Below, piece after piece: positions 1 to 18,074 of a DNA stretch of 64,000 nt (position 1 is the stretch's first letter; the number at the start of each line of letters is the position of its first letter). The notes beneath the pieces are model-generated. The model did no database searches. It saw only the letters and a list, made by a program, of their open reading frames with translations, and had not been told where the DNA came from. Origin of the DNA: a virus. Taxonomy: Duplodnaviria > Caudoviricetes. The stretch lies in the IMG/VR virus record IMGVR_UViG_3300042868_009047; one strand, 5' to 3'. Position numbers and translations under genes: made by a program.

Positions 1-363
1 TCAGCTTTTATTGGCCTTGGTAGTGGGTTAAGTTGGTTATCTTGGGCTATTGGAACACCTACGGTTCTTATTTCAGGGTTTAGTTATCCTTTATCAGAGT
101 TTGCTGATTGCGAAAGAATTTTTAATCCAGATGTTTGTAACGGATGTTTTAACAGACATTGGTTAAATCCAGGGGATTGGGAATGGTGCCCAGATCATAA
201 AGACACACCAAGACATTTTGAATGTTCTAAAACTATTAAAACTCAAACAGTTATAGACGCTGTTGATAGACTTTTAAGTAAAAAAGAAGAGATTATTCAA
301 GAAGTTACTGAAGAGGTCTTAGAAAAAAAAGAGAAAAAAAGTTTTTTTGGTAAGTTTTTTTAG
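1..363 (+). CDS. 3' end of an autotransporter-type O-heptosyltransferase-like glycosyltransferase (GT9, TibC/Aah-like); partial, runs off the window
   Basis: Not in the ORF track. Frame 1 reads SAFIGLGSGLSWLSWAIGTPTVLISGFSYPLSEFADCERIFNPDVCNGCFN..WEWCPDHKDTPRHFECSKTI and ends at TAG 361-363. It has the GT9 'GxxSGLSWLxWA..P.VLISGF' motif and a four-Cys cluster like the iron-binding Cys set of TibC. Confidence 0.72.
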   Translation, partial: SAFIGLGSGLSWLSWAIGTPTVLISGFSYPLSEFADCERIFNPDVCNGCFNRHWLNPGDWEWCPDHKDTPRHFECSKTIKTQTVIDAVDRLLSKKEEIIQEVTEEVLEKKEKKSFFGKFF

Positions 364-372: not shown

Positions 373-399
373 TTGCTATAATGTAAGATAGCAACAACT

Positions 400-969: not shown

Positions 970-1795
970 AGAAAAATTAAAAGATATACTCTCCACCCCA
1001 ACTTATTGTGGGCAAGAACAATATCTTATAGCGAAAATAACAAGATATCTTAGTGAAAGTAATTTAGATTATGTTGTTGATGAACATGGCAATATCTATG
1101 TAACAAAGGGTGTTGCTGATCACTACCCTTGTATTGTTGCCCATACAGATTCAGTCCATAGGATTGTTGAAATGGATATTCTTGAACGTGAGGATGATGA
1201 GGATATTTTATACGCTGTTGAAAAGGGTACAAATAAAAGAACTGGGTGTGGCGGGGATAATAAGGCTGGTGTATACGTTTGCTTGGAATTACTTGAACGT
1301 GTTGAGATTCTTAAAGCCGCTTTTTTTGTTTCAGAAGAATATGGTTGCTTTGGTTCAATACTTTCAGATGAGACATTCTTTGAAAACGTTGGATACACAC
1401 TTCAATTTGATGCACCAGAAAATGATTGGGTAACCCATTATTGTAATGGTGTTAAACTATTTGATGAGGAAGGTGATTTTTATAAAACAATCCAACCAAT
1501 ACTAGAAGATTACATGGGTGATTATTCTTTGGGTAGACACCCGTACACAGACGTAAGCGTTTTAGGAGCTTTTCATGACTTTTCTTGTATCAACTATTCA
1601 GTTGGTTATTACAACATGCATTCAAACATGGAGTATGTCAGCGTTGGTTTTACACAACAAGCCAAAAATATCGCTTTAGAGATCATTTCATCCCTGGGTA
1701 ATATAAAGTATCCGTTTATAGATGAAACCGTCAGAATCGACAAAGAAAAGGCCAGAGAGAGGGCTTTAAAATCACTTAATGGTTTAAGAAAATAA
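962..1795 (+). CDS. M28/M42-clan zinc peptidase
   Basis: Metal and catalytic motifs VAHTDSVH, GGDNKAG, FVSEEYGCFGS, QFD, YTD and YYNMHSNME. Confidence 0.8.
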   Translation: MSKEKLKDILSTPTYCGQEQYLIAKITRYLSESNLDYVVDEHGNIYVTKGVADHYPCIVAHTDSVHRIVEMDILEREDDEDILYAVEKGTNKRTGCGGDNKAGVYVCLELLERVEILKAAFFVSEEYGCFGSILSDETFFENVGYTLQFDAPENDWVTHYCNGVKLFDEEGDFYKTIQPILEDYMGDYSLGRHPYTDVSVLGAFHDFSCINYSVGYYNMHSNMEYVSVGFTQQAKNIALEIISSLGNIKYPFIDETVRIDKEKARERALKSLNGLRK

Positions 1796-1821
1796 AAAAA
1801 GGGGTTTTAAACCCCTTTCTT
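1796..1821. terminator. Bidirectional intrinsic terminator between convergent genes
   Basis: A-tract, GGGGT/ACCCC hairpin, T-rich tail. Confidence 0.7.
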
Positions 1822-1826: not shown

Positions 1827-4800
1827 TTATTTTTTTAAATCTTGGATTTCTTTGTCAAGATCTTTTATTGCTTCAATAAGTAGACCAACCAAGTTTGAGT
1901 AAGCTACCCCTAAGTATCCGTCAGATTCTCTTGTTGATATAACCTCTGGGATAACTTTTTGAACTTCTTGTGCAATAACACCCATTTTCAATGATTTGTC
2001 CTCAACGTCATTTCTCGTATAGTTAACACCTCTCATACTTCTAACTTTATTCAAAGCATCGCTAATTGTAACAACATTATCCTTAACTCTTTCATCTGAG
2101 AATGCAATAACATCAGCAGAAGCGTAGATAGTACCACTAACATCCAATGTATATGATGGTGAGGCATTGTTAATACCAAGTCTGTTACTAGTTGTATCAA
2201 CTTTCAAGAAGCTTACACTTTGTACTTGTGTTGCACTTGTTGTTCTAACCAAGTAGTCAGGTTGGTTTGTGAATGAACCACCACTGATACCAGATGTACC
2301 ATTAATAGATTGACCACTTGTTCCAGCAACACCTGTAGTACCATTTGTACCGTTAGCGCCTGATAAACCACCTGCACCGTTGTTACCATTGTTACCAGCT
2401 GCACCATTTGTACCGTTAGAACCATTTACACCTGATAAACCACCTGCACCGTTGTTACCGTTGTTACCAGCTGCACCATTTGTACCGTTAGAACCATTTA
2501 CACCTGATAAACCACCTGCACCGTTGTTACCATTGTTACCAGCAACACCTGAAGTACCGTTTGCACCGTTGTTACCGTTGTTACCAGCTGCACCATTTGT
2601 ACCATTTGAGCCGTTAACACCCGAAACACCACTATTACCATTACCACCGTTAAGACCATTAGCACCACCAGTACCTGTAGAACCATTAGTTCCACTTACA
2701 CCTGAGACACCACCAAGACCAACACCACCATTGTTACCGTTAGTACCGTTTGAACCATTTGAACCTGATAGACCTGATAAACCAGAGTTACCATTGTTAC
2801 CGTTGTTACCTGAAGTTCCGTTAGTACCAGTTGAACCTGAAGAACCAGAAAGTTGACTTATACCTGAAGGAACAGGTAAACCGTTTGTACCACCAGTGCC
2901 CGATGAACCTGAAGAACCACTCACCGCTGAATTACCATTACCACCAGCATTACCATTATTACCAGTTGTACCATTTGTACCTGTTGATCCTGATAGGCCT
3001 GAATTACCACTGTTACCATTAGCACCGTTGTTACCATTTGTACCAGCAGTTCCGTTAGAACCTGAAATACCACTTAAACCACTTACACCATTTCCACCAC
3101 TAGCACCTGATGTACCAGCTGTTCCGTTAGAACCTGATAGACCAGAATTACCTGAGTTACCGTTAGCACCATTATTACCGTTTGTACCATTTGTACCAGT
3201 CGATCCTGAAGAACCGCTCAATCTTGATAAACCAATAGCACCAGCATTACCTGTAGTACCGCTTGTACCTGTAGATCCAGAAGAACCAGATAAACCACTT
3301 ACACCATTTCCAGCACTAGCACCTGATGTACCAGCTGTTCCGTTAGAACCTGAAATACCACTTAAACCACTTACACCATTAGCACCATTGTTACCGTTAG
3401 TACCGTTTGATCCATTGGTCCCACTTAATCCAGAGTTACCTGAGTTACCGCTGTTACCATTGTTACCTGAAGTTCCGTTAGTACCAGTTGAACCTGAAGA
3501 ACCACTCAATCTTGATAAACCAATAGTACCAGCATTACCTGAAGTACCATTTGTACCTGAAGATCCTGAAGAACCAGAAAGTTGACTTATACCTGAAGGA
3601 ACAGGTAAACCGTTTGTACCACCAGTGCCCGATGAACCTGAAGAACCACTCACCGCTGAATTACCATTACCACCAGCATTACCTGTAGTACCTGTAGAAC
3701 CTGTTGACCCTGAAGTACCTGATAGGCCTGAATTACCGTTTCCACCAGCATTACCATTTGTACCATTTGAACCATTTGAACCTGATAAACCTGATAAACC
3801 ACTAACACCATTTCCACCACTAGCACCTGATGTACCAGCTGTTCCGTTAGAACCCGATAAACCAGATAAACCACTTACACCATTAGCACCATTGTTACCA
3901 TTTGTACCTGTAGATCCATTTGTTCCACTTAATCCAGAGTTACCGCTGTTACCGTTGTTACCTGTAGTTCCGTTAGTACCAGTTGATCCTGAAGATCCAC
4001 TATTAGCTGAAGCACCGATGTTACCAGCATTACCATTTGTACCGTTTGTACCTGTTGATCCTGAAGAACCAGAAAGTTGACTTATACCTGAAGGAACAGG
4101 TAAACCGTTTGTACCAGCAGTACCAGTCGAACCAGAGGTACCACTCACCGCTGAGTTACCATTAGCACCAGCATTACCTGTAGTACCATTTGTACCTGTT
4201 GATCCTGAAGAACCACTATTAGCACTTGCACCAATGTTACCAGCATTACCTGAAGTACCATTAGAACCTGAAGTTGCTGAAGAACCACTTAATCGTGATG
4301 AACCTGAAGCACCCGCAGTACCTGAAGAACCAGAAGAACCAGAAGTTCCTGAAGAACCACCCAAACCACTATTACCAGCAGTTCCTGAAGAACCACTTGT
4401 TCCTGAAAGAGCGCTAATACCATTTAATCCAGCCACACCACCTGTACCGTTAGAACCAGTAGAACCAGATGAACCACTTAAAGCCGAAGCTCCGATGTTA
4501 CCCGCATTACCCGATGTACCGTTAGAACCTGTTGAACCAGCAGAACCGCTTAAACCAGATGTTCCGCTAAATCCTGATTGACCTCTAAACCCTGTTGTTC
4601 CTGTTGTTCCTTCCGTACCTGAAGAACCTGAAGAACCAGCTAATCCTGAAGTCGCTGAAGAACCAGAAGTTCCAGAAGAACCTGACAATCCACTTAAACC
4701 ACTCGTACCATTTGTACCAGTTGATCCTGAAGACGCTGAACTACCAGAGTTAGCTGATAAACCATTACCACCGATTATACCTGTAGTACCATTTGTACCA

Positions 4801-7800
4801 GTTGATCCTGAAGATCCACTATTAGCTGAAGCACCGATGTTACCAGCATTACCATTTGTACCGTTTGTACCAGTTGATCCTGAAGAACCTGATAGAGTAC
4901 TTATACCAGAACCAACAGCTAAACCATTTGTACCAGCAGTACCAGTTGATCCTGAAGAACCTGAAGATGCTGAAGAACCACTTAATTGTGATAAACCTGA
5001 GTTACCAGCAGTTCCGTTTGTACCAGTTGAACCTGAAGAACCAGAAGTTCCTGAAGAACCTGAGTTATTACTAGCACCATTGTTACCAACCGTACCAATT
5101 GTACCTGAAGTTGCTGAAGTACCTGAAGTACCCGCAAAACCTGCTATTCTAGAAATACCGTCAGTACCAGCAGTACCAGTACTACCTGAACTACCTGAAG
5201 TACCACTTGATCTACTCAATGAAGACGCACCATCAGTACCATTTGTTCCAGAAGAACCAGAAGTTCCTGAAGAACCTGACGATCTACTTAAACCTGATGT
5301 ACCATTTGTACCAGTTGATCCTGAAGACGCTGAACTACCAGAGTTAGCTGATAAACCATTACCACCGATTATACCTGTAGTACCATTTGTACCAGTCGAT
5401 CCTGAAGACCCGCTTAATGCACTAGCACCTATATTTCCAGCATTACCTGAAGTACCATTAGAACCAGATGTGCCTGATGAACCTGAGTTATTACTCGCAC
5501 CATTATTACCCGCTGTACCAGTTGAACCTGAAGAACCAGCGGTTCCCGAACTTCTACTTAAACCAGACTGACCATCTGTACCATTTGTTCCTGAAGAACC
5601 AGAAGATCCAGAAGAACCTGACAATCTTGATAAACCAGCGGTACCAGCGGTACCTGTAGAACCGCTAGATGCTGAAGAACCACTTAATTGTGATAAACCT
5701 GAGTTACCAGCAGTTCCGTTTGTACCAGTTGACCCTGAACTACCAGATGTTCCTGAAGATCTACTTAAACTAGATTGACCATCGGTACCATTTGTTCCAG
5801 AAGAACCGCTTGTTCCAGAAGAACCAGAAGACCTACTTAAACCAGCAGTACCATTTGTTCCTGAAGAACCACTTGAACCGCTTGACGCACTTGATCCACT
5901 ATTTGAACTTAAACCTGATGTACCATTCGTACCAGTTGAACCTGAAGAACCTGAAGTTCCTGAGCTTCTACTTAAAGCAGACTGACCATCCGTACCATTT
6001 GTTCCAGAAGAACCTGAAGTTCCTGAAGAACCTGAAGATCTACTTAAACCTGAAGTACCATTTGTTCCTGAAGAACCAGAAGAACCTGAAGAAGCAGAAG
6101 ACCCAGACAATTGTGACAAACCTGAGTTACCTGCTGTACCATTTGTACCAGTTGAACCTGAAGTTGCAGAGCTACCTGAAGTTGAACTTAAACCACTATT
6201 ACCAGCATTACCTGATGTTCCATTTGTACCTGTAGAACCACTTGAACCTGAAGTTCCAGCTGAACCAGAACTTCTACTTAAACCTGATTGACCGTCTGTA
6301 CCAGAAGTACCAGAGGTTCCAGCTGTTGCTGAAGATCCGCTTAATCTTGATAAACCTGATGTACCAACCGTACCATTTGTTCCTGAAGACCCCGAAGATG
6401 CGCTAGAACCACTTAACTGAGATAAACCTGAGTTACCAGCGGTTCCGTTTGTACCAGTAGAACCTGAAGTAGCAGAGCTACCAGAAGATGCTGAAGCACC
6501 TGATAAACCAGATGTACCGTTAGTACCAGTTGATCCTGAAGAACCAGCAGTTCCTGATGACCCAGAACTTCTACTTAATCCAGAAAGACCATCTGTACCT
6601 GACGTACCTGTTGATCCAGAACTACCTGAAGTTCCAGAAGTATCACTTAATGCTGATTGGCCATCAGTTCCAGATGTACCTGAAGTTCCAGCTGTTGCTG
6701 AAGACCCACTTAATCTACTCGAACCGTTTGTACCAGCAGTACCAGTTGTTCCCGATGAACCTGAAGAAGCAGATGAACCACTTAATTGAGACAATCCAGA
6801 ATTACCAGCTGTTCCGTTTGTTCCCGTAGAACCAGAGGTTGCTGATGAACCTGAAGATGCTGACGCACCCGATACACCCGCAGTACCGTCAGTACCTTTA
6901 GAACCACTTGAACCAGATGTTCCTGAAGTTCCTGATGTAACAGATATACCACTATTTGCGGCAACACCTGATGTACCAACTGTACCCGAAGTAGCTGAGC
7001 TACCAGAAGTTCCAGCTGAACCACTATTATTACTTGAACCAACTGTACCATTTGTACCCGTAGAACCTGAAGAACCACTTGTGCCTGAACTTCTACTTAA
7101 AGCAGATGCTCCGTCAGTACCTGAACTACCTGTTGATCCTGAACTACCTGAAGTTCCTGAAGTATCACTTAATGCTGACTGACCATCTGTACCAGAAGTA
7201 CCAGATGTACCAGATGTTGCTGAAGACCCAGACAATCTGCCTAACCCAGATGTACCAATTGTACCCGAAGTAGCTGAGCTACCAGAAGTCGCTGAAGAAC
7301 CAGAGTTAGCTGAAGCACCGTTTGTACCAACTGTTCCAGTTGATCCTGAACTACCTGAAGTACCACTTGATCTACTTAGTGATGATTGGCCATCAGTACC
7401 ATTTGTTCCAGAAGAACCAGATGTTCCAGAAGAACCTGACGATCTACTTAAACCTGAAGTACCATTTGTTCCTGAAGAACCAGAAGATGCGCTTGAACCA
7501 CTTAACTGAGATAAACCCGAGTTACCAGCTGTTCCGTTTGAGCCAGATGTACCTGATGTAGCCGAACTACCAGCTGATCCTGAAGAACCACTTAATTGTG
7601 ATAAACCGTTTGTACCCGCAGTACCTGAAGTAGCAGAAGAACCTGATGTAGCTGAGCTACCACTATTCGCTGAAGCACCATTTGTACCGTTCGTACCAGT
7701 ACTACCAGAAGAACCAGATGTTCCTGAAGACCTACTCAATGAAGACGCACCATCCGTACCATTTGTTCCAGAAGAACCAGAAGTTCCTGAAGAACCTGAC

Positions 7801-10800
7801 GATCTACTTAAACCGCTTGTTCCGTTTGTTCCTGAAGAACCTGAAGATGCTGAAGACCCAGACAATTGTGACAAACCTGAGTTACCAGCTGTACCACTTG
7901 AACCAGAAGTTCCTGAAGTTGCTGAAGATCCCGAAGAACCACTTAACGCTGAAGAACCAACTGTACCTGCTGAACCTGAAGTTGCTGATGTACCAGAAGT
8001 TCCTGAAGAACCACTATTTGCACTAGCACCATTTGTACCAGTGGTACCAGTTGATCCTGAACTACCACTTGTACCTGAACTTCTACTTAAAGCAGAAGCA
8101 CCATCTGTACCATTTGTTCCTGAAGACCCAGAAGTTCCAGAAGAACCCGAAGATCTACTCAAACCAGAAGTACCGTTAGTACCACTTGATCCTGAAGTTG
8201 CCGAAGAACCACTTAATTGTGATAAACCTGAAGCACCCGCAGTACCGTTTGTACCTGTAGATCCGCTTGATCCTGATGTTCCAGCTGAACCAGAACTTCT
8301 ACTTAAACCTGATTGACCATCAGTTCCTGAAGTACCAGTCGATCCTGAAGAACCAGATGTACCTGAAGTATCACTTAATGCTGATTGGCCATCAGTACCT
8401 GAGGTACCCGATGTACCAGCTGTTGCTGAAGAACCTGACAATCTTGATGAACCGTTTGTACCAGCGGTACCAGTTGTTCCTGAAGAACCACTTGATGCGC
8501 TTGACCCACTTAATTGTGACAATCCCGATAAACCAGCAGTACCATTTGTACCCGTAGAACCTGAAGACGCTGAAGTACCGCTCGATCCACTATTTGCGGA
8601 TTGACCACTTGTACCAGCGCTACCTGAAGATGCTGATGAACCTGATGAACCTGATGTTCCTGAAGTTGCACTTGATCCAGCACTACCTGAAGATCCGCTT
8701 AACTGAGACAATCCTGATGTACCAACCGTTCCTGATGTTGCTGAAGAGCCTGATGTAGCTGAGCTACCTGAGTTAGCTGAAGCACCTGAAGTTCCGTTAG
8801 AACCTGTAGATCCTGAAGAACCAGATGTTCCGCTTGATCTACTTAATGATGATTGGCCATCAGTTCCTGAAGTACCAGTTGAACCTGATGAACCAGAAGT
8901 TCCTGAAGTATCACTTAACGCTGATTGACCGTCCGTACCTGAAGTACCTGACGTTCCAGCTGTTGCTGAAGACCCACTTAATCTACCCAATCCTGAGGTA
9001 CCATTTGTACCTGAAGTTGCGGAAGATCCTGAAGTTGCGGAAGAACCACTATTTGCTGAAGCACCTGAAGTTCCGTTAGAACCAGTCGATCCAGAAGAAC
9101 CCGATGTTGCTGAAGAACCAGCAGAACCACTTAACGCTGAAGAACCTGCTGTTCCTGAAGTCCCAGAAGAACCTGCGCTACCAGCTGAACCACTTAACGC
9201 TGAAGAACCAACTGTACCAGACGTACCAGAAGATGCTGATGAACCTGAAGTTCCAGCAGAACCTGAAAGTTGACTTAAACCTGAAGTACCGATTGTACCT
9301 GAAGTAGCTGAGCTACCTGAAGTAGCTGAAGAACCGCTATTTGCGCTAGCACCGTTAGTACCGTTTGTACCTGTACTACCTGAACTACCTGATGTACCAG
9401 AACTTCTACTTAATGAAGACTGACCATCTGTACCATTTGTACCTGAAGAACCCGAAGTTCCTGAAGAACCTGAAGATCTACTCAAACCTGAAGTACCATT
9501 TGTTCCTGAAGAACCGCTAGATGCTGAAGAACCGCTTAATTGAGATAATCCTGAGTTACCAGCTGTTCCATTTGAACCGCTTGTACCAGAAGTCGCTGAA
9601 GAACCAGCAGATCCACTTGAACCACTTAATGAACTTAAACCAGATGTACCCGCAGTACCACTTGTAGCAGAGCTACCAGCTGTTGCTGAAGAACCTGAAT
9701 TAGCAGATGCTCCGTTTGTACCGTTTGTACCCGTAGAACCACTTGAACCAGATGTACCAGAACTTCTACTTAACGCTGATGCACCATCCGTACCCGCTGA
9801 TCCTGAAGAACCAGAAGAACCTGATGTACCACTTGTTGCTGAAGTACCCGCTGAGCCTGAGCTACCACTTAATTGTGATACTCCAGATGTTCCAGCTGTT
9901 CCTGATGTTGCGGAACTACCAGCTGTTGCTGAAGAACCACTATTTGAACTTAATCCTGACGTACCGTTTGTTCCAGTTGATCCTGAAGAACCAGCAGTTC
10001 CTGATGAACCTGAAGATCTACTCAAACCAGATTGTCCGTCAGTTCCTGAAGTTCCCGTAGAACCTGATGATCCAGAAGTTCCTGATGTATCACTTAAAGC
10101 TGACTGACCATCTGTACCAGATGTACCAGAGGTTCCAGCTGTTGCTGAAGATCCGCTTAATCTACCCAATCCTGAGGTACCCGCAGTACCACTTGTAGCT
10201 GAACTACCAGAAGTTGCTGAAGAACCTGAATTTGCACTTGCACCTGAAGTACCAGTAGAACCTGTTGAACCACTTGATGCAGATGTTCCTGAAGAACCAC
10301 TATTTGAAGATAAACCAGATGTACCGTTTGTACCAGTTGATCCTGAAGAACCACTAGAACCTGACGTACCGCTTGATTTACTTAATGCTGAAGCTCCATC
10401 AGTACCAGATGTACCACTTGAACCTGAAGAACCAGATGTACCACTTGTTGCAGATGTTCCAGCAGAACCAGAAGAACCTGATAATTGAGACAATCCAGAT
10501 GTACCAACTGTACCTGAAGTGGCAGATGAACCAGAGGTTGCTGATGAACCGCTATTTGCTGAAGCGCCATTTGTACCGTTTGATCCAGTTGAACCACTTG
10601 AACCAGATGTTCCTGAAGATCTACTTAACGATGATTGACCATCAGTTCCTGAAGTTCCTGTTGATCCTGAAGAACCACTTGTTCCAGAAGTATCGCTTAA
10701 AGCTGATTGGCCATCTGTACCTGAAGTACCTGATGTACCAGCCGTTGCTGAAGAACCTGATAATCTACCTAAACCTGAAGTACCGTTTGTACCTGAAGTT

Positions 10801-13800
10801 GCGGAAGAACCAGATGTAGCTGAACTACCAGAGTTTGCCGATAAACCGCTTGTACCAGCTGATCCTGAAGAACCACTTGTTCCCGCTGTTGCTGAAGAAC
10901 CAGCTGAACCACTAGAACCACTTAACGCTGAAGAACCAACTGTACCTGCCGAACCTGAAGTTGCTGATGTACCGCTTGTTGCAGAAGAGCCACTATTTGA
11001 AGATAAACCAGATGTACCGTTTGTACCTGTTGATCCTGAACTTCCACTTGTACCTGAACTTCTACTTAAAGCAGATGCTCCGTCAGTACCAGCTGATCCT
11101 GAAGAACCACTTGATCCTGATGTACCTGAAGTCGCAGATGTACCAGCAGATCCAGAAGAACCTGAAAGTTGACTTAATCCTGATGTACCAATTGTACCAC
11201 TTGTTGCCGAACTACCAGAAGTTGCAGATGATCCAGAATTAGCACTTAATCCTGATGTTCCAGCTGAACCAGTACTTCCTGAAGAAGCTGATGTACCCGC
11301 TGAACCAGAAGATGCGCTTAAACCACTAGAACCTGATGTTCCTGAAGTCGCAGAAGAACCTGCGCTACCAGCAGAACCGCTTAATGCTGAACTACCTGAA
11401 GTACCAGTTGTACCGCTTGTTGCAGAACTACCAGCTGTTGCTGAAGAACCACTATTCGAACTCAACCCTGAAGTACCGTTTGTACCAGTTGAACCACTTG
11501 AACCAGAAGAACCTGAAGTTCCTGAAGATTTACTTAATGCTGATTGACCATCAGTTCCTGAAGTTCCAGTTGAACCACTTGATCCAGATGTACCAGATGT
11601 ATCACTTGTAGCAGAAACACCATCTGTACCTGAAGTACCTGATGTACCAGCTGTTGCTGAAGAACCGCTTAGTCTTGACAAACCTGAAGTACCGATTGTA
11701 CCTGATGTAGCTGAAGAACCTGAAGTTGCTGATGAACCACTATTTGCGCTAACACCTGATGTACCAGCAGTACCTGTAGATCCAGAAGAACCTGAAGTTG
11801 CTGAACTACCACTTAATGCGCTAGCCCCTGAAGTTCCAGCCGAACCACTTGAACCTGAAGTTGCTGATGTTCCAGCTGAACCAGAACTTGCTGATAGACC
11901 TGAAGACCCTGCGGTTCCTGAAGTTGCTGATGTACCAGCCGAACCTGAACTACCGCTTAATGCTGAGCTACCTGATGTACCAGTTGTACCACTTGTAGCT
12001 GAACTACCGCTTGTTGCAGATGATCCGCTATTAGCCGATAAACCTGAAGTACCATTTGTACCAGTTGATCCTGAAGATCCACTTGATCCAGATGTACCTG
12101 AAGATCTACTTAAACCTGATTGACCATCAGTTCCTGATGTACCTGTAGAACCACTTGATCCAGAAGTTCCTGAAGTATCACTTAACGCTGATTGACCGTC
12201 CGTACCTGAAGTACCTGATGTACCAGCTGTTGCTGAAGACCCACTTAATCTACCCAATCCTGAAGTACCATTTGTACCTGAAGTCGCTGATGAACCACTT
12301 GTTGCTGAGCTACCAGAGTTTGCACTAGCACCTGAAGTACCAGCAGAACCTGTTGATCCTGAAGAACCAGAAGTCGCAGAAGAACCTGCGCTACCACTTA
12401 ACGCTGAACTACCAGAAGTACCTGTTGTTCCAGAAGTAGCAGATGAACCTGCGCTCCCCGAAGATGCGCTCAATCCTGAGCTACCAGCTGTTCCTGAAGT
12501 AGCAGAGCTACCTGAAGTTGCCGAAGATCCGCTTAATTGAGATAAACCATTTGTACCAGCAGTACCAGTTGTACCAGAAGATGCTGATGTACCGCTTGAA
12601 CCACTATTTGCAGCTAAACCTGAGGTACCATTTGTACCAGAAGTTGCTGATGAACCAGAAGAAGCTGAAGTTCCTGAAGAAGCAGATGCTCCTGAAGATC
12701 CATTAGAACCTGATGAACCTGCGGTTCCTGAAGTTGCCGATGAACCAGAAGATGAACTTAATCCTGAAGACCCTGCGGTTCCAGAAGTTGCTGAAGTACC
12801 CGCTGAACCACTCAATGCAGAACTACCAGATGTACCTGTTGTACCTGAAGTTGCTGATGAACCAGAAGTTGCTGAAGAACCCGAGTTAGCGCTTAGGCCT
12901 GACGTACCATTTGTACCAGTTGATCCTGAAGATCCGCTAGAACCAGATGTACCACTTGATTTACTCAATGCAGAAGCACCATCAGTTCCTGAAGTACCAG
13001 TCGATCCTGAAGAACCAGATGTACCTGAAGTATCACTTAAAGCAGATTGACCATCAGTACCTGAGGTACCCGATGTACCAGCTGTTGCTGAAGAACCAGA
13101 CAATCTTGATAAACCTGAAGTACCATTTGTACCTGAAGTAGCAGAAGAACCAGACGATGCCGAAGTTCCTGAGGAAGCTGAAGCTCCTGAAGAACCAGCT
13201 GATCCAGCTGAACCTGATGTTCCAGCTGTTGCTGAAGAACCACTTGAAGCACTTAAACCTGAAGATCCAGCTGTTCCTGAGGTAGCCGAACTACCTGAAG
13301 TTGCTGAAGATCCGCTTAATGCACTTAAACCACTCGTACCATTTGTACCTGAAGTAGCTGAACTACCAGACGATGCTGATGTTCCTGAAGATGCCGAAGC
13401 TCCTGAAGAACCTGATGATCCCGTAGAACCTGCGGTTCCTGATGTTGCTGAACTACCAGAACTTGCACTCAACCCTGATGAACCTGCGGTTCCAGAAGTT
13501 GCTGAAGATCCTGATGTTGCTGAACTACCACTATTTGAAGATAATCCTGATGTACCGTTTGTACCTGATGTAGCTGAGCTACCTGATGTACCTGATGAAC
13601 CAGAACTATTACTATTTCCACTCGAACCTGCGGTCCCTGAAGAAGCTGAACTTCCTGAAGAACCTGATGTACCGCTAGTCGCAGATGATCCACTTGTAGC
13701 AGATGATCCCGAATTAGCAGCCAATCCTGAGGTACCATTTGTACCTGAAGTTGCTGATGAACCAGATGATGCCGAAGTTCCTGAAGAAGCTGAAGCACCT

Positions 13801-16800
13801 GAAGAACCATTAGAACCAGTTGAACCTGATGTACCGCTTGACGCTGATGTACCTGAAGAAGCGCTTAAACCTGAACTTCCAGCTGTTCCTGACGTAGCAG
13901 AGCTACCTGAAGTTGCTGAAGAACCACTATTTGAACTCAATCCCGAAGTACCGTTTGTTCCACTTGTAGCAGAAGAACCAGAACTTGCAGATGTACCTGA
14001 AGAAGCTGAAGCGCCTGAAAAACCAGCTGATCCACTTGTACCTGAAGTACCTGAAGAAGCTGAACTTCCAGATGATGCACTTAAACCAGAACTTCCAGCC
14101 GTTCCTGAGGTAGCGGAGCTACCTGAAGTTGCTGAAGAACCCGAGTTAGCGGCCAACCCTGATGTACCATTTGTACCTGAAGTAGCTGAACTACCAGACG
14201 ATGCTGATGTTCCTGAAGAAGCTGACGCACCACTTGACCCAGCTGAACCTGAAGATCCTGAGGTCGCAGAAGTTCCTGAAGAACCAGCTGAACCCGAACT
14301 ACCTGAATTAGCAGCTAAACCTGAAGTACCATTTGTACCTGAAGTAGCTGAACTACCAGACGATGCTGATGTTCCTGAAGAAGCGGAAGCCCCTGATGAA
14401 CCAACAGAACCTGTTGAACCTGAAGTTCCACTTGTTGCTGAAGACCCAGCAGAAGAACTTAAACCTGAAGATCCAGCCGTACCACTTGTAGCAGAGCTAC
14501 CTGAAGTTGCTGATGAACCACTATTACCTGATAAACCACCAGTACCATTTGTTCCTGAAGAACCAGAAGATCCTGATGTAGCTGAAATAGCTGAAATACC
14601 ATCAGCACCATCAACCCCACTTGAACCTGAAGTTCCTGATGAACCAGATGTTTTACTTGAACCAGCTAAACCACTTGTACCTGTTGTACCCGAAGTTGCT
14701 GATGAACCACTTGTTGCTGAAGACCCTGAATTAGCTGATAAACCACTTGTACCAGCTGTTCCTGAAGTTGCAGATGAACCAGATGATGCTGATGTTCCTG
14801 AAGATGCTGATGCCCCTGATGAACCTGATGTACCAGCTGTTCCACTTGTAGCTGAAGAACCTGATGTTGCAGATGTACCTGAAGAAGCTGAAGCTCCACT
14901 TGAACCTGCCGAACCACTAGTTGCAGATGTACCTGAAGAAGCTGAACTTCCAGATGATGCACTTAAACCAGAACTTCCAGCCGTTCCTGACGTTGCAGAC
15001 GAACCAGAAGAAGCCGAAGAACCCGAATTAGCAGCTAAACCTGAGGTACCGTTTGTACCTGAAGTTGCTGATGATCCTGATGTAGCTGAACTACCGCTTA
15101 AAGCAGAAGCCCCACTTGTACCTGATGAACCTGAACTACCTGATGTAGCTGAAGTACCTGAAGTTGCTGATGAACCACTATTTGCACTCAAACCTGAGGT
15201 ACCGTTTGTACCTGAAGTCGCTGACGAACCCGATGATGCACTTAAGCCTGAAGAACCAACCGTACCACTTGTTGCAGAGCTGCCTGAAGAAGCTGACGCT
15301 CCTGATGAACCATTAGAACCTGAAGTAGCAGAGCTGCCTGAAGTTGCTGATGATCCTGAGTTTGCTGATAAACCAGAAGTACCATTTGTACCTGTAGAAC
15401 CAGCTGTTCCTGAAGAACCTGAAAATTGACTTAAACCTGACGCACCAGCAGTACCATTTGTACCAGTTGATCCTGAAGAACCGCTTGATCCAGATGTTCC
15501 TGAAGTTGATGATAAATTACTATCCCCACCAATACCTGATGTTCCAGTTGAACCCGAACTACCTGAGGTCCCTGATGTTGATGATAAATTACTTTCACCA
15601 TCTATACCTGAAGTACCATTTGATCCACTTGACCCTGATGTACCTGAAGAAGAACTATCACCACTTATACCTGAGGTTCCATTGGAGCCGTCAGCTCCTG
15701 AAGAACCGTTTGTTCCAGTTGAACCTGATTCACCTGACAATCCAGATGTACCATAAGACCCATCATTTCCTGAAGATCCATCAGACCCAGTTGACCCAGA
15801 CGTACCTGATTGACCAGATGTGCCATAAGACCCATCATTTCCTGAAGATCCATCAGACCCAGTTGATCCTGATTCACCTGACAATCCAGATGTACCAAAA
15901 GAACCATCAACACCTGATAAACCCGATGTACCGTCTGATCCAGAGACACCTGAAACACCGTTAACACCATTTAAACCTGAAGAACCATCACTACCATTTG
16001 AACCTGACTCCCCACTTCGACCATTTGAACCAAAGGAACCATAAACTCCTGAAGAACCATCTGTTCCATTACTACCAGATTCACCTGAAACACCTGAAGT
16101 CCCATTGGAACCATTATTTCCTGAAGATCCATCGGATCCTGTAGAACCACTTTCACCACTTAAACCTGAAGTTCCAAAACTACCATCATTTCCTGAAGAA
16201 CCGTCAGTACCTGTACTACCAGATTCCCCTGATTGACCAGATGTTCCGAAAGAACCATCTAAACCACTCGATCCGTCTGTTCCAGTTGACCCAGATTCAC
16301 CACTTATACCTGAGGTTCCGTTGGAACCATTATTACCACTACTACCATCTGTACCTGTTGAACCAGATTCACCAGATTGACCTGAAGTTCCAAAGGAACC
16401 ATCGTTTCCTGAAGATCCATAAGTACCATTTGATCCAGATTCACCACTTATACCTGAGGTTCCGTTGGAACCTGAAACACCTGATGTACCATCAACACCA
16501 TCAACACCATCAACACCATTTGTACCACTTGATCCTGATTCTCCGCTTATACCTGAAGTTCCGTTGGAACCATTATTACCACTAATACCATCTGTACCAG
16601 TTGATCCGCTTTCACCAGATTGACCACTTGTACCAAAACTACCATCGTTTCCTGAAGATCCATCGGATCCAGTTGAACCAGACGTACCAGATTGACCTGA
16701 AGTTCCAAAACTACCGTCAGCTCCTGAAGAACCATCTGAACCTGTTGAACCAGACGTACCAGATTGACCTGAAGTTCCAAAACTACCGTCAGCTCCTGAA

Positions 16801-18074
16801 GAACCATCTGAACCTGTTGATCCAGACTCACCTGACAACCCTGAAGTTCCAAAACTACCATCAACACCTGATAAACCCGATGTACCATCTGATCCAGAGA
16901 TACCAGAACTACCATCAACACCATTTAAACCAGAAGTACCAGTTGAACCGCTTTCACCTGAAACGCCACTTGTACCAAAAGAACCATCGTTTCCTGAAGA
17001 TCCATCGGATCCAGTTGAACCGCTTTCACCTGATTGACCTGAAGTTCCAAACGATCCGTCATTTCCTGAACTACCGTCAGATCCTGTACTACCTGACTCT
17101 CCACTTACACCTGAAGTTCCATTGGAGCCATTATTACCACTACTACCATCTGAACCAGTTGAACCAGATTCACCTGATAAACCAGATGTTCCGAAAGAAC
17201 CATCAGCACCCGATAAACCGTCTGTGCCAGTGCTACCACTTTCACCGCTTATACCTGATGTACCAAAAGATCCATCATTTCCTGAAGACCCATCGGATCC
17301 TGTAGACCCGCTTTCTCCACTTATACCTGAAGTTCCGTTGGAACCAGAAACACCACTTATACCTGAAGTTCCGAAGGAACCATCAACACCACTTATACCT
17401 GATGTACCATCAACACCATCAACACCATCAACACCATTTGTACCTGAAGTACCAGAAACCCCTGATGTACCATAAGATCCGTCATTTCCTGATGAACCAT
17501 CACTACCTGTACTACCACTTTCTCCACTTACACCTGAAGTTCCGAAGGAACCATCAGCACCACTTTCGCCTGAAGTTCCTGTGGATCCAGATTCCCCTGA
17601 AACCCCTGAAGTTCCAAAAGAACCATCATTTCCTGAAGAACCATCAGAACCTGAAGAACCTGATGTTCCTGACTCACCTGAAGTACCGTAAGAACCACCT
17701 AAACCTGAATAACCTGAAGTACCAGCGGTACCAGATGTACCTGCTAATAAAGGTGAATAAGAATATTCACCAGTAACTGAATTAAACGACACGAAATAGT
17801 TTGGTGAACTATTTTGGGTCATACCAGTAACAAATAATTGATTTAATGTATAAATACCCTTAAGATCTTGGGTATTTTCCCACTGAAGCGTGGAGTTATT
17901 CCAAACTAGAATATCCCCTTCATTGGGGCCAGCGCCAGCTATTACAACGTCTGATAGATCATCTATACCTAGATTTTCTATAACGTCCTTTATATTTTGG
18001 AAGTTAGCGTCTAATTCCGCGTAGGATAGCGCCCTTCCTAGATCATCCCTAAGATAAATTGTTACTGTTGCCAT
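1827..18074 (-). CDS. Giant (5,415 aa) Gly/Ser/Thr period-3 repeat tail fibre with C-terminal peptidase S74 intramolecular chaperone
   Basis: N-terminus LRDDLGRALSYAELDANF and LSDVVI..GDILVWN resembles phage fibre N-termini. About 5,200 aa of (G/A/x)-x-(S/T/N) triplets follow. The C-terminus FSDERVKDN...GVIAQEVQKVIPE...VAYSNLVGLLIEAIKDL is the S74 chaperone signature, with the predicted cleavage Ser at 2097-2099. Confidence 0.85.
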   Translation of the reverse strand: MATVTIYLRDDLGRALSYAELDANFQNIKDVIENLGIDDLSDVVIAGAGPNEGDILVWNNSTLQWENTQDLKGIYTLNQLFVTGMTQNSSPNYFVSFNSVTGEYSYSPLLAGTSGTAGTSGYSGLGGSYGTSGESGTSGSSGSDGSSGNDGSFGTSGVSGESGSTGTSGESGADGSFGTSGVSGESGSTGSDGSSGNDGSYGTSGVSGTSGTNGVDGVDGVDGTSGISGVDGSFGTSGISGVSGSNGTSGISGESGSTGSDGSSGNDGSFGTSGISGESGSTGTDGLSGADGSFGTSGLSGESGSTGSDGSSGNNGSNGTSGVSGESGSTGSDGSSGNDGSFGTSGQSGESGSTGSDGSSGNDGSFGTSGVSGESGSTGTSGLNGVDGSSGISGSDGTSGLSGVDGSFGTSGLSGESGSTGSDGSSGADGSFGTSGQSGTSGSTGSDGSSGADGSFGTSGQSGTSGSTGSDGSSGNDGSFGTSGQSGESGSTGTDGISGNNGSNGTSGISGESGSSGTNGVDGVDGVDGTSGVSGSNGTSGISGESGSNGTYGSSGNDGSFGTSGQSGESGSTGTDGSSGNNGSNGTSGISGESGSTGTDGSSGLDGSFGTSGQSGESGSTGTDGSSGNDGSFGTSGLSGESGSTGSDGSSGNNGSNGTSGVSGESGSNGTDGSSGVYGSFGSNGRSGESGSNGSDGSSGLNGVNGVSGVSGSDGTSGLSGVDGSFGTSGLSGESGSTGSDGSSGNDGSYGTSGQSGTSGSTGSDGSSGNDGSYGTSGLSGESGSTGTNGSSGADGSNGTSGISGDSSSSGTSGSSGSNGTSGIDGESNLSSTSGTSGSSGSTGTSGIGGDSNLSSTSGTSGSSGSSGSTGTNGTAGASGLSQFSGSSGTAGSTGTNGTSGLSANSGSSATSGSSATSGSNGSSGASASSGSSATSGTVGSSGLSASSGSSATSGTNGTSGLSANSGSSATSGTSATSGSSGSSGTSGASALSGSSATSGSSATSGTNGTSGLAANSGSSASSGSSATSGTAGSSGLSASSGSSASSGTSATSGSAGSSGASASSGTSATSGSSATSGTAGTSGSSGASASSGTSASSGSSATSGTAGTSGLSANSGSSATSGSSATSGTTGTSGLAGSSKTSGSSGTSGSSGVDGADGISAISATSGSSGSSGTNGTGGLSGNSGSSATSGSSATSGTAGSSGLSSSAGSSATSGTSGSTGSVGSSGASASSGTSASSGSSATSGTNGTSGLAANSGSSGSAGSSGTSATSGSSGSAGSSGASASSGTSASSGSSATSGTNGTSGLAANSGSSATSGSSATSGTAGSSGLSASSGSSASSGTSGTSGSAGFSGASASSGTSASSGSSATSGTNGTSGLSSNSGSSATSGSSATSGTAGSSGLSASSGTSASSGTSGSTGSNGSSGASASSGTSASSGSSATSGTNGTSGLAANSGSSATSGSSATSGTSGSSGSSASSGTAGSSGNSNSSGSSGTSGSSATSGTNGTSGLSSNSGSSATSGSSATSGTAGSSGLSASSGSSATSGTAGSTGSSGSSGASASSGTSASSGSSATSGTNGTSGLSALSGSSATSGSSATSGTAGSSGLSASSGSSATAGTSGSAGSAGSSGASASSGTSASSGSSATSGTNGTSGLSRLSGSSATAGTSGTSGTDGQSALSDTSGTSGSSGSTGTSGTDGASALSKSSGTSGSSGSSGSTGTNGTSGLSANSGSSATSGSSATSGTTGTSGSSALSGSAGTSATSGTAGSSGLSSSSGSSATSGTAGSSGSNGSSGASASSGTSASSGSSATSGTNGTSGLAANSGSSGTSASSGTTGTAGTNGLSQLSGSSATSGSSATSGTAGSSGLSASSGSAGSSATSGTTGTSGSSALSGSAGSSATSGSSGSTGSAGTSGASANSGSSATSGSSATSGTNGTSGLGRLSGSSATAGTSGTSGTDGQSALSDTSGTSGSSGSTGTSGTDGQSGLSRSSGTSGSSGSSGSTGTNGTSGLSANSGSSATSGSSATSGTTGTSGSSALSGSSGSAGTSATSGTAGSSGLSASSGSAGTSATSGSSGSAGTSGASALSGSSATSGSSGSTGTAGTSGVSANSGSSATSGSSATSGTIGTSGLSRLSGSSATAGTSGTSGTDGVSATSDTSGTSGSSGSTGTSGTDGQSALSKSSGTSGSSGSSGSTGTNGTSGLSSNSGSSATAGSSATSGTTGTSGSSALSGSAGSAGSSATSGTSGSSGLSASSGSAGTSASSGSTGSAGTSGLSANSGSSATSGSSATSGTIGTSGLSQLSGSSGSAGTSATSGTSGSSGSSGSAGTDGASALSRSSGTSGSSGSTGTNGTSGLSSNSGSSATSGTSATSGSAGTVGSSALSGSSGSAGSSATAGTSGSSGSAGTSGLSANSGSSATSGSSATSGTNGTSGLGRLSGSSATAGTSGTSGTDGQSALSDTSGTSGSSGSTGTSGTDGQSSLSRSSGTSGSSGSTGSNGTNGASANSGSSATSGSSATSGTVGTSGLSQLSGSSGSAGTSATSGTSGSSGSSGTSGTDGASALSKSSGTSGSSGSSGSTGTNGTSGLSSNSGSSGTSASSGSTGSTGTSGASANSGSSATSGSSATSGTAGTSGLGRLSGSSATAGTSGTSGTDGQSALSDTSGTSGSSGSTGTSGTDGQSGLSRSSGSSGTAGSSGSTGTNGTSGLSSNSGSSATAGSSATSGTAGTSGVSQLSGSSGSAGTSATSGTSGSSGSSGSAGTDGASALSRSSGTSGSSGSTGTNGTNGASANSGSSATAGSSATSGTAGTSGLSSLSGSSGSAGSSATSGTSGSNGTAGNSGLSQLSGSSASSGSSGTNGTSGLSRSSGSSGTSGSSGTNGTDGQSSLSRSSGTSGSSGSTGTNGTNGASANSGSSATSGSSATSGTIGTSGLSQLSGSAGTSGSSASSGTSGTVGSSALSGSAGSAGSSGTSGTAGSSALSGSAGSSATSGSSGSTGSNGTSGASANSGSSATSGSSATSGTNGTSGLGRLSGSSATAGTSGTSGTDGQSALSDTSGTSGSSGSTGTSGTDGQSSLSRSSGTSGSSGSTGSNGTSGASANSGSSATSGSSATSGTVGTSGLSQLSGSSGSAGSSATSGTSGSSGSSASSGSAGTSGQSANSGSSGTSASSGSTGTNGTAGLSGLSQLSGSSASSGSSGTTGTAGTNGSSRLSGSSATAGTSGTSGTDGQSALSDTSGTSGSSGSTGTSGTDGQSGLSRSSGSAGTSGSSGSTGTNGTAGASGLSQLSGSSATSGSSGTNGTSGLSRSSGSSGTSGSSGTNGTDGASALSRSSGTSGSSGSTGTTGTNGASANSGSSGTSGTSATSGSAGTVGSSALSGSSGSSATSGTSGSSGTAGNSGLSQLSGSSASSGSSGTNGTSGLSRSSGSSGTSGSSGTNGTDGASSLSRSSGTSGSSGSTGTNGTNGASANSGSSATSGSSATSGTAGTNGLSQLSGSSGSAGSSATSGTSGSNGTAGNSGLSQLSGSSASSGSSGTNGTSGLSRSSGSSGTSGSSGTNGTDGQSSLSRSSGTSGSSGSTGTVGTNGASANSGSSATSGSSATSGTIGTSGLGRLSGSSATSGTSGTSGTDGQSALSDTSGTSGSSGSTGSSGTDGASALSRSSGTSGSSGSTGTNGTVGSSNNSGSAGTSGSSATSGTVGTSGVAANSGISVTSGTSGTSGSSGSKGTDGTAGVSGASASSGSSATSGSTGTNGTAGNSGLSQLSGSSASSGSSGTTGTAGTNGSSRLSGSSATAGTSGTSGTDGQSALSDTSGTSGSSGSTGTSGTDGLSGLSRSSGSSGTAGSSGSTGTNGTSGLSGASASSGSSATSGSTGTNGTAGNSGLSQLSGSSASSGSSGTNGTVGTSGLSRLSGSSATAGTSGTSGTDGQSGLSRSSGSAGTSGSSGSTGTNGTSGNAGNSGLSSTSGSSATSGSTGTNGTAGNSGLSQLSGSSASSGSSGSSGTNGTSGLSRSSGSSGTSGSSGTNGTDGQSALSRSSGTSGSSGSTGTNGTSGLSSNSGSSASSGSSGSSGTNGTAGLSRSSGSSGTSGSSGTNGTDGQSSLSRSSGTSGSSGSTGTNGTAGNSGLSQLSGSSASSGSTGTAGTAGLSRLSGSSGSSGSSGTNGTDGQSGLSRSSGTAGSSGSTGTAGNNGASNNSGSSGTSGSNGTSGNAGNIGASALSGSSGSTGTNGTTGIIGGNGLSANSGSSASSGSTGTNGTSGLSRSSGSSGTSGSSGTNGTDGASSLSRSSGTSGSSGSTGTAGTDGISRIAGFAGTSGTSATSGTIGTVGNNGASNNSGSSGTSGSSGSTGTNGTAGNSGLSQLSGSSASSGSSGSTGTAGTNGLAVGSGISTLSGSSGSTGTNGTNGNAGNIGASANSGSSGSTGTNGTTGIIGGNGLSANSGSSASSGSTGTNGTSGLSGLSGSSGTSGSSATSGLAGSSGSSGTEGTTGTTGFRGQSGFSGTSGLSGSAGSTGSNGTSGNAGNIGASALSGSSGSTGSNGTGGVAGLNGISALSGTSGSSGTAGNSGLGGSSGTSGSSGSSGTAGASGSSRLSGSSATSGSNGTSGNAGNIGASANSGSSGSTGTNGTTGNAGANGNSAVSGTSGSTGTAGTNGLPVPSGISQLSGSSGSTGTNGTNGNAGNIGASANSGSSGSTGTNGTTGNNGNSGNSGLSGTNGSTGTNGNNGANGVSGLSGLSGSNGTAGTSGASGGNGVSGLSGLSGSNGSNGTNGNAGGNGNSGLSGTSGSTGSTGTTGNAGGNGNSAVSGSSGSSGTGGTNGLPVPSGISQLSGSSGSSGTNGTSGNAGTIGLSRLSGSSGSTGTNGTSGNNGNSGNSGNSGLSGTNGSNGTNGNNGANGVSGLSGISGSNGTAGTSGASAGNGVSGLSGSSGSTGTSGTTGNAGAIGLSRLSGSSGSTGTNGTNGNNGANGNSGNSGLSGSNGTAGTSGASGGNGVSGLSGISGSNGTAGTNGNNGANGNSGNSGLSGSTGTNGTTGNNGNAGGNGNSAVSGSSGSSGTGGTNGLPVPSGISQLSGSSGSTGTNGTSGNNGNNGNSGLSGLSGSNGSNGTNGNNGGVGLGGVSGVSGTNGSTGTGGANGLNGGNGNSGVSGVNGSNGTNGAAGNNGNNGANGTSGVAGNNGNNGAGGLSGVNGSNGTNGAAGNNGNNGAGGLSGVNGSNGTNGAAGNNGNNGAGGLSGANGTNGTTGVAGTSGQSINGTSGISGGSFTNQPDYLVRTTSATQVQSVSFLKVDTTSNRLGINNASPSYTLDVSGTIYASADVIAFSDERVKDNVVTISDALNKVRSMRGVNYTRNDVEDKSLKMGVIAQEVQKVIPEVISTRESDGYLGVAYSNLVGLLIEAIKDLDKEIQDLKK
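2359..2543 (-). repeat. 72-bp near-exact tandem repeat (about 2.5 copies) inside the fibre gene
   Basis: Unit cctgataaaccacctgcaccg... starts at 2359, 2431 and 2503; it encodes 24-aa GNNGNNGAGGLSGVNGSNGTNGAA-type units. Confidence 0.85.
2836..3683 (-). repeat. 119-bp exact dispersed duplication inside the fibre gene
   Basis: 2836-2954 is identical to 3565-3683 (729 bp apart, in frame). It encodes the GNAGGNGNSAVSGSSGSSGTGGTNGLPVPSGISQLSGSSG block. Confidence 0.8.

Follow-up and report, generated by a model that had tools for sequence, protein, structure and literature searches.

The DNA analyzed here is a 64,000-nucleotide stretch of IMG/VR virus record IMGVR_UViG_3300042868_009047 (Duplodnaviria; Caudoviricetes), which we call the window, and our subject is a single open reading frame (ORF) of 5,415 codons that occupies about 16.2 kb of its minus strand (window 1827..18074). 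On balance, we favor the reading that the product of this gene is a virion fiber of giant size, trimeric and collagen-like, with an imperfect middle and probably O-glycosylated. In the 5,415-aa protein, an N-terminal anchor of 111 aa is followed by 1,714 triplets, then by a tip of 72 aa and finally by a Peptidase_S74 chaperone. Its triplet region spans 5,142 residues (aa 112-5253, window 2316-17741) and holds a single register with zero 1- or 2-residue slips. The original prediction, made from the sequence alone, had placed a proline-poor period-3 polymer of about 5,200 residues at 2300-17740, which was correct to within 1%. The carrier is probably a large, uncultured lake phage, and its host is probably a Bacteroidota bacterium; the CheckV completeness of relatives suggests a genome of about 300 kb, with other lineages nearer 150 kb.

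The gene is not a product of chance: a frame of 16.2 kb stays open, all zones of the encoded polymer score above the Pfam Collagen cut-off, and dozens of independent contigs show the same architecture. The gene has a G+C content of 43-47%, compared with 30-33% in the flanks, an excess that fits its Gly/Ser/Thr/Ala-rich codon make-up. Many ORFs of 100-244 codons also lie on the plus strand inside the gene (window 2380-17776); these are by-products of the repetitive codon pattern and not genes.

Composition, zones and ends of the polymer

Each position of the triplet has its own composition. Position 1 is Gly in 80.3% and Ala in 13.4% of triplets, followed by Arg (2.3%), Ser (1.2%) and Gln (1.2%), and rarely D, N, V, K or T; residues other than Gly and Ala (R/Q/S/D/K/N/V/T) occupy this axial site in 7% of triplets. 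Position 2 is mostly Ser (35%) or Thr (35%), then Leu (11.5%) and Asn (7%), and position 3 is Ser in 66%, Asn in 10.6%, Ala in 8%, Thr in 6% and Asp in 5%. Gly itself is found at position 2 in 0.6% and at position 3 in 1.0% of triplets. These preferences fit collagen geometry, with L, V, I, E and Q only at X and S, N, A, T and D at Y. Ser and Thr make up 47% of the 5,142 residues and hydrophobic residues just 3.6-5.6%. The whole region contains 6 Pro and 5 Lys, no Cys and no His, and not one KGE, KGD, RGE or RGD sequence. Both recognized stabilizers of collagen, imino acids and Lys-Glu/Asp pairs, are thus absent. In a chain without Pro/Hyp and without Lys-Glu/Asp clamps, the Ser present at two thirds of Y positions is most likely O-heptosylated and further decorated, and the most likely source of this predicted modification is the glycosylation cassette that neighbors the gene. 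The original prediction had described NGT/NGS sequons as very frequent. N-X-S/T sequons are indeed present, with 121 observed, and are not enriched (131 +/- 6 expected from a position-wise composition shuffle). The sequon argument falls because this frequency is what the composition predicts, and we rejected N-glycosylation since there is no enrichment and the neighboring enzyme is of an O-linking type.

Four zones had been predicted along the chain, and all four can be recognized by position-1 composition and charge, although zones 2-4 are gradients rather than sharp blocks: they grade into one another as position-1 Ala declines steadily from about 30% to about 2%. Following the anchor (aa 1-111, window 17742..18074, minus strand, as for all parts of the fiber), zone 1 (aa 112-807, 15654..17741) consists of 232 perfect Gly-X-Y triplets out of 232, is acidic (70 D+E against 1 K+R, net -69) and has a 24/48-aa super-repeat. 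The triplets GES, GSD, GND and GSF/GSY are almost confined to it. A transition (aa 808-903, 15366..15653), with 81% Gly at position 1, brings the first S, N and Q at this site and the end of the acidity. In zone 2 (aa 904-1620, 13215..15365), which is almost uncharged and 56% Ser+Thr, position 1 is 67% Gly and 31% Ala, the two often alternating (GSS-ATS; ATS, ASS). Zone 3 (aa 1621-4500, 4575..13214) has 76% Gly, 15% Ala and 9% R/Q/S/D/K at position 1, with breaks such as GLS-RLS, GLS-QLS, ALS-DTS, ALS-RSS and also KSS; its charges balance (D+E = K+R = 42) and its super-repeats measure 69-123 aa. Zone 4 (aa 4501-5253, 2316..4574) returns to 93% Gly at position 1, is 16.7% Asn, with triplets GNN, GNA, GAN and GTN, and contains perfect Gly runs of up to 59 triplets. 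At the DNA level each zone has its own repeat family, with TRF periods of 72-369 nt that are all multiples of 9 nt and mostly of 72, and with 60-85% identity; the zone 1 periods are 72 and 144 nt (66-84% identity). In zone 4, a 72-nt unit is also repeated 3.5 times in a near-perfect (98%) tandem array at window 2313-2561.

Gly stands at every third residue without a break in aa 112-807 and largely so in aa 4501-5253 (93%), but in aa 904-4500 at only 67-76% of these sites, which bears out the original prediction that the middle departs from canonical collagen. Non-Gly residues occupy 337 of the 1,714 axial sites, as 283 single and 27 double breaks, and between aa 904 and 4476 the longest perfect Gly run is 9 triplets. 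The breaks are stereotyped: Ser stands at position 3 in 93-98% of non-Gly triplets, axial Arg and Gln mostly follow GLS and precede Leu or Ser (GLS-RLS, GLS-QLS), axial Asp follows ALS, and every interruption belongs to the commensurate G5G/G8G type. Hydrophobic and Asn positions, analyzed as a spectrum, reveal a 24-residue (8-triplet) super-period. Five 300-aa samples scored against Pfam Collagen (PF01391, cut-off 27.2 bits) gave 160.6 bits in zone 1 (aa 301-600), 76.5 in zone 2 (aa 1201-1500), 83.4 and 88.1 in zone 3 (83-88) and 116.3 in zone 4. For the middle, the kept register and the Collagen scores of 76-88 bits argue for a relaxed collagen-type or polyproline-II geometry rather than another fold.

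The anchor begins with a conserved motif, MATVTIYLR..G.AL...ELDANF in the family alignment, and carries one copy (aa ~33-78) of a widespread fiber repeat that is found in 5-15 copies in other long fiber proteins. It is closed directly before the triplets by a cap, SP.Y.VSF....GEYSY, which is likewise found ahead of the triplets in family members with a different type of N-terminal module. In 31 IMG/VR loci the anchor opens the fiber genes at 51-95% identity, in every case right after a ClpB-like gene. A tblastn search of the anchor against 50,697 phage records returned no match, none of 22 family members matched Pfam, and a PDB profile search gave no match. A model built from the 22-sequence alignment reached a predicted local distance difference test (pLDDT) of 58, and Foldseek against the PDB found nothing below E 1. 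Weak leads connect the anchor with T4 gp9/gp10 (PF07880), namely phrog_677 at E 5e-4 and language-model neighbors at 0.93 with 151-154 shared features.

At the other end, the distal tip (aa 5254-5325, window 2100..2315) opens with a two-residue register break (GQS-IN-GTS), followed by three final triplets and a short segment without repeats, which would become the C terminus of the mature protein upon the predicted self-cleavage. As the tip has just 72 residues, the mature distal end would lack a large receptor-binding domain. The closest relatives (L037-L049) share 77-86% identity with the tip, and more distant ones at most 63%. The chaperone (aa 5326-5415 plus stop, 1827..2099) matches the S74 domain PF13884 (6e-15, 55.7 bits where the cut-off is 22; positions 1-56 of the 58 in the profile), as the original prediction of an S74 chaperone on a trimeric fiber had anticipated. 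In its AFSDERVK sequence, Ser5326 and Lys5331 align with the catalytic Ser (mutated in the crystal) and Lys of the MYRF ICA structure 7DC3, and MYRF was the only match of tip plus chaperone among solved structures. The last triplets, tip and chaperone together (aa 5230-5415, 186 residues) match the C-terminal parts of dozens of tail-fiber PHROGs (1e-33 to 1e-12). Since the C terminus is an S74 intramolecular chaperone, the fiber is expected to be built as a trimer. If cut at Ser5326, the mature chain would have 5,325 aa, 454 kDa, a pI of about 4 and 2,491 Ser+Thr.

Relatives of the fiber and its genetic neighborhood

The fiber belongs to a family found in IMG/VR lake contigs, whose tip and chaperone are 40-86% identical to those described here. 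Locus synteny is conserved: a ClpB-like AAA+ gene is followed by one or more fiber genes and then by a convergent glycosylation cassette. The amount of fiber coding varies from about 2,000 to 7,500 aa per locus, sometimes in two genes (1,104 + 888 aa; 5,415 aa here; 5,825 aa; 3,513 + 3,682 aa; 2,574 + 4,969 aa). At split loci, the first gene encodes the same anchor, an acidic strict-Gly rod and a ~190-aa globular end, and the second runs from a short cap through a rod that is first Ala/Ser-rich and later Asn-rich to the tip and chaperone. Given this make-up, the boundary between zones 1 and 2 in our chain corresponds in composition to the gene boundary elsewhere, and the 5,415-aa chain looks like a proximal and a distal fiber fused without a joint. 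Mapping the split genes onto this chain by BLASTP fails, because all collagen-like rods cross-align and the junction cannot be placed; the correspondence rests on composition and end domains. The N-terminal module of the family is also found swapped onto other fiber-type distal domains.

In five relatives (~20,000 residues), no slip occurs inside any collagen-like run, slips being found solely at inserted globular domains of ~100 aa, and indels between relatives are multiples of three residues. A register without slips and indels in multiples of the triplet indicate that the period is under selection throughout. Axial Gly in zone 1 is at 100% here and at 99-100% in relatives, whereas in the middle G and A swap freely between relatives and some Arg and Gln sites are kept; the two regions are thus under different constraints at the axial site.

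Individual relatives add variations. The first gene of locus L089 (G001:C1:7600-27500), of 3,513 aa, has a globular domain directly after the anchor and two ~100-aa globular copies (FGC..LPYIWGFD...GYVYTVSS) between collagen-like runs, and its register shifts only there. The 5,825-aa one-piece relative (L016:10763, G003) has a single in-frame stop after codon 254, and locus L041 has a frame break inside the rod; each may reflect an error of sequencing or a genuine defect. Locus L092 (G004:C1:36400-49500, minus strand) encodes a 4,184-aa fiber of ~1,250 triplets that is nearly pure (G-S/T-S)n, with Gly at 99.7% of position 1 and Ser at 96% of position 3; it differs in its N-terminal module and its larger tip, ends in an S74 domain, and has a GT9 of 35% identity nearby.

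The glycosylation cassette consists of seven genes convergent with the fiber gene (window 1-1795, continued in L001:1616-10215, an ENA contig from another sample). In order, they encode a GT1-type transferase (917 aa), a methyltransferase, a second GT1-type transferase (316 aa), a NodU/CmcH-type carbamoyltransferase, a TibC-like GT9 (423 aa), a glucosaminidase and a phrog_4191 protein. The window holds the 3' end of the GT9 gene (last 120 codons, 1..363, plus strand), which is complete in L001, followed by the glucosaminidase (window 400-969) and phrog_4191 (window 962-1795) genes. Between cassette and fiber gene, the sequence reads as a G+C-rich hairpin (AAAGGGG-loop-CCCCTTT, 1798..1818); flanked by A- and T-runs, this element likely acts as an intrinsic terminator in both directions.

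The GT9 matches TibC (PDB 4RAP) over nearly its full length at E 2.5e-58, and two TibC entries were its sole matches among solved structures. It retains D110, K230, R286, W305 and the iron-finger cysteines Cys339/342/358/370, with T226 replaced by Ser (catalytic Asp, sugar-binding and iron-finger residues as defined in PMC4358343). To follow its association with fibers, we used 40 loci collected through the S74 end (L037-L076), excluding short partial matches (L077-L084). A GT9 lies in the flank of 20 of the 20 loci with a Ser- or Asn-rich collagen-like S74 fiber and an available flank, and of none of the 18 loci with other S74 fibers; one further Ser-rich locus had no flank and one locus was too short to score. 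The 20 positive loci fall into at least four divergence classes, one of which shares only 35-39% GT9 identity and comprises the 4,184-aa pure (G-S/T-S)n fiber. This repeated coupling of GT9 and Ser-rich fiber is the strongest argument that Ser in the rods is the substrate of the enzyme.

Upstream of the fiber gene by 90 nt and on the same strand lies a ClpB/ClpC-like double AAA+ gene (window 18165-20630, minus strand), whose start is the ATG at 20630 and not the GTG at 20651. It is present upstream in all 31 anchor loci, at 71-97% identity. An obligate partnership is ruled out, since a 147-kb relative, 93% complete, lacks the gene and yet encodes a 3,190-aa fiber and a GT9; the ClpB-like product may be a lineage-specific folding helper. 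A prolyl-4-hydroxylase-type 2-oxoglutarate-Fe(II) oxygenase (PF13640, window 21658-22323, plus strand) is found near the fiber locus in all relatives at 78-96% identity, in contrast with a fiber nearly devoid of Pro and Lys to hydroxylate. In one freshwater metatranscriptome run, RNA-library contigs of 175-380 nt, a small share, align at 95-99% identity to window 9460-14819. They may be transcripts of a close relative or DNA carry-over, and we did not use them as evidence of expression.

Proposed assembly of the fiber and alternative readings

In the assembly route that we propose, three chains would be made in the cytoplasm, where the TibC-like enzyme would heptosylate Ser and the other transferases of the cassette would add further decoration. 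The C-terminal chaperone would then trimerize the chains, set their register and nucleate folding, after which the polymer would zip from the C to the N terminus, toward the anchor. The chaperone would cut itself off at Ser5326 and the anchor would dock onto the particle. The strict-Gly parts (aa 112-807 and most of 4501-5253) would form a collagen-type triple helix, and the 3,600-residue middle, in which every fifth "Gly" is replaced, a looser, kink-rich rod that keeps the three-residue period. The acidic strict rod near the particle could keep fibers spread apart, the long imperfect middle could give reach and flexibility, and the Asn-rich strict rod with its small tip, or the glycan coat, could be what meets the host first. 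The result would be a flexible thread, thin and hydrophilic, that enlarges the capture radius of the particle. The predicted length of ~1.5 micrometers is arithmetically right for a fully triple-helical rod, as 5,142 residues at the collagen rise of 0.286 nm per residue give a contour of 1.47 micrometers. Treated as a worm-like chain of this length with a persistence length of 15-60 nm, the thread would have an estimated radius of gyration of ~90-170 nm.

Several points weigh against this reading. The 337 non-Gly triplets, which include axial Arg and Gln, exceed the tolerance of any characterized triple helix, and the middle may simply be unfolded; an AlphaFold2 monomer of aa 1900-2187 gave pLDDT 31 and no secondary structure, a weak result as it was run on a single sequence. 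The net charge of -69 per chain in zone 1, without counter-charge, should oppose trimer packing. The glycosylation is read from the gene neighborhood, the known substrates of TibC are beta-helical autotransporters, and the anchor has no recognizable relative of known virion location. The remaining points concern the assembly. No Logan unitig bridges the gene, and the joints listed are repeat artifacts. Other short-read assemblies break inside the fiber gene, and contigs found through the exact ClpB-like protein end 277-488 codons into it; the full 16.2-kb span, and with it the total fiber length, rests on one assembly.

Is the gene then real, with a length or internal order that is wrong because repeats were collapsed, expanded or mis-joined, or two genes fused? 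Besides these breaks and joints, such an error would account for the difference of one unit between two assemblies: L001 carries an extra 72-nt unit (24 aa) in the array 2313-2561, which is either copy-number polymorphism or assembly slippage. It is also in keeping with some relatives, whose fiber coding is split between two genes or interrupted by an in-frame stop or frame break. Yet outside that array the repeats are only 60-85% identical, enough for unique assembly, and L001 reproduces window 2561-7938 with two differences, both synonymous, and with zero in 4575-7938. Exact unitigs of 400-900 nt are found along the whole gene at an even, flank-like depth in three lake metagenomes (2018, 2020 and 2024), and 18 lake-water samples contain the sequence. 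The gradient across zones is orderly, the 5,825-aa relative has the same one-piece layout apart from its stop, and the ~190-aa globular joint of split relatives leaves no trace here. We therefore regard an assembly problem of this kind as unlikely.

A rival that we consider possible, if doubtful, accepts the gene and limits the triple helix to the strict-Gly ends (aa 112-807 and ~4501-5253). The middle would then be three separate O-glycosylated chains, similar to mucins or antifreeze glycoproteins and acting as an entropic leash or brush, with a beat inherited from ancestral collagen-like units. This fits the 20% of non-Gly at position 1, the perfect runs of at most nine triplets across aa 904-4476, the free interchange of G and A between relatives, a content of 52-56% Ser+Thr and 3.6-5.6% hydrophobic residues in the middle, a Collagen score there of half that of zone 1, and the TibC-like cassette next door. 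Periods in multiples of 9 nt, mostly of 72, would in addition reflect growth by duplication of units, which keeps the register automatically. However, the repeats are old (60-85% DNA identity), and zero 1- or 2-residue indels over 3,600 residues, here and in relatives, argue for selection on the period. Position 1 is moreover G or A in 91-98% of triplets, and the bulky exceptions stand in conserved contexts (GLS-R/Q-LS, with Ser at position 3 in 98%) that would be needless in a random coil. As for the glycosylated tether that the original prediction had offered among its options, the comparative evidence supports glycosylation through the conserved TibC-like cassette, thus by an O-linked and not by the N-glycan sequon route.

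Another fold for the Ala-rich middle, be it a beta-solenoid, a triple beta-helix or a polyglycine-II bundle with one 24-residue super-repeat per turn, is in our view very unlikely. The 24-residue period of hydrophobic and Asn positions would suit it; S74 chaperones are also best known for folding triple beta-helices, and the known substrates of TibC are beta-helical (PMC4358343). Only one or two hydrophobic residues are available per 24, without an alternating in/out pattern, and there is one Gly per triplet, where polyglycine-II bundles need more, and no turn signal. Super-repeat length differs between zones, from 24 to 123 aa, and there is thus no constant rung. The AlphaFold2 monomer (pLDDT 31; single sequence, hence weak) revealed nothing of the kind, and the sister lineage with its pure (G-S/T-S)n and 99.7% Gly has a collagen-type sequence. 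The polyglycine-II bundle and beta-solenoid of the original prediction thus found no support. We give least credence to the idea that the protein is not part of the virion at all and is released or displayed by the infected cell as a matrix, decoy or surface coat. The gene does lie outside any recognizable baseplate module in the window, among chaperone, glycosylation and cell-wall-hydrolase genes, and a block of exported proteins is present in the window as well. Against this, the conserved N terminus has no signal peptide or membrane segment, the C terminus matches dozens of tail-fiber PHROGs, and the N-terminal module is exchanged with other fiber-type distal domains, as in tail fibers.

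The trimeric, collagen-like virion fiber thus remains the reading that we prefer, and it can be extended to a bolder proposal that we put forward only tentatively and think somewhat improbable as a whole: a distinct structural class of serine-based "glyco-collagen." Here a TibC-like enzyme, ring-shaped and processive, would O-heptosylate the Ser at Y, and the sugar would take over from Pro, Hyp and salt bridges, making the triple helix stable enough to tolerate Ala, and even Arg or Gln, at one in five axial Gly sites. Its members would be micron-long, sugar-coated tentacles, the longest known appendages of tailed phages, and would amount to a novel way of constructing collagen. There are earlier descriptions of collagen-like phage fibers, of S74 chaperones and of very long collagen-like ORFs in microbes; our literature searches found no paper on a Ser-based, proline-free, TibC-coupled fiber family, and the Moraphage study (PMC12619734) concerns a different lineage and leaves this gene unmentioned. 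If the strict zones fold without Pro or charge pairs thanks to a sugar cassette, this would be a third, genetically compact route to triple-helix stability, and TibC-type protein heptosylation would extend from virulence autotransporters to phage particles. A thread of up to ~1.5 micrometers in dilute lake water would change estimates of adsorption radius and host encounter, and the modular family, with swappable anchors, fused or split rods and 2,000-7,500 residues, would provide a natural series on the tuning of fiber length.

Comparison with known systems

Polyglycine-II bundles, such as the snow-flea antifreeze protein and gp38 of phage S16, are made of short GXX/GGX helices that turns join into a compact bundle, the inner helices having two or more Gly positions per triplet. 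The fiber described here has neither a periodic turn motif nor the extra Gly per triplet. Like the segmented long tail fiber of T4 (gp34-gp37), the fiber is divided in its split relatives, with anchor, rod and joint encoded by a proximal gene and cap, rod, tip and chaperone by a distal one. Unlike the T4 fiber, its rods are collagen-like and not beta-structured and its single chain has no joint, and we saw no sequence similarity, whether for the anchor against the 50,697 phage records or for tip and chaperone against solved structures.

Phage and prophage collagen-like tail fibers offer a parallel, for example the EPclA-D family of E. coli O157 prophages (PMC3368898), where Gly-X-Y repeats also form part of a trimeric phage fiber, are flanked by separate trimerization modules and change length in threes. 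The collagen domains of EPclA-D have at most 322 aa, Pro at about half of X positions, many charged pairs and a single conserved interruption (PMC3368898), whereas the repeat of the present fiber, at 5,142 aa, contains just 6 Pro, is 47% Ser+Thr, lacks Lys-Glu/Asp pairs and departs from Gly in 337 triplets. With S74 fibers and spikes (endosialidase, T5 pb1 and the MYRF ICA; PF13884; 7DC3), it shares the C-terminal domain, the Ser/Lys dyad and the placement at the end of a trimeric fiber. Characterized members have a triple beta-helix or beta-rich stalk ahead of the S74 domain, where the present fiber has a collagen-like polymer and a tip of only ~70 residues. In size, the fiber falls within the class of very long prokaryotic and viral collagen-like proteins, which reach 2000 triplets or ~6000 aa with many interruptions (PMC11923368), and like them it combines great length (1,714 triplets) with frequent interruptions. 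KGE/KGD salt-bridge clamps have been proposed as their universal stabilizer, especially around interruptions (PMC11923368), and this fiber is devoid of them.

The pairs TibC/TibA and Aah/AIDA-I (PMC4358343) offer an analogy for the locus, since there too a GT9 of the bacterial autotransporter heptosyltransferase (BAHT) type adjoins a very Ser-rich, repetitive, adhesin-like gene. Unlike TibA and AIDA-I, our protein is a phage fiber without an autotransporter barrel or 19-residue beta-helix repeats, and has instead a three-residue period and an S74 end. The cassette also differs from these pairs in its two GT1-type transferases, carbamoyltransferase and methyltransferase.

Glycosylated collagens are a precedent for the proposed stabilization. 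The cuticle collagen of the worm Riftia, which is of micron scale, carries galactosyl-Thr at Y, and the collagen-like region of BclA of Bacillus is also glycosylated. A sugar on a hydroxy-amino acid at Y is thought to replace hydroxyproline, as the third known stabilizer, and glycosylated Thr stabilizes the worm cuticle collagen. The present fiber has the same imino-poor triplets rich in hydroxy-amino acids as these glycosylated collagens, whose kind is mentioned in PMC11923368; here, the residue is Ser rather than Thr, and the candidate enzyme for its putative glycosylation is a cytoplasmic TibC-type heptosyltransferase.

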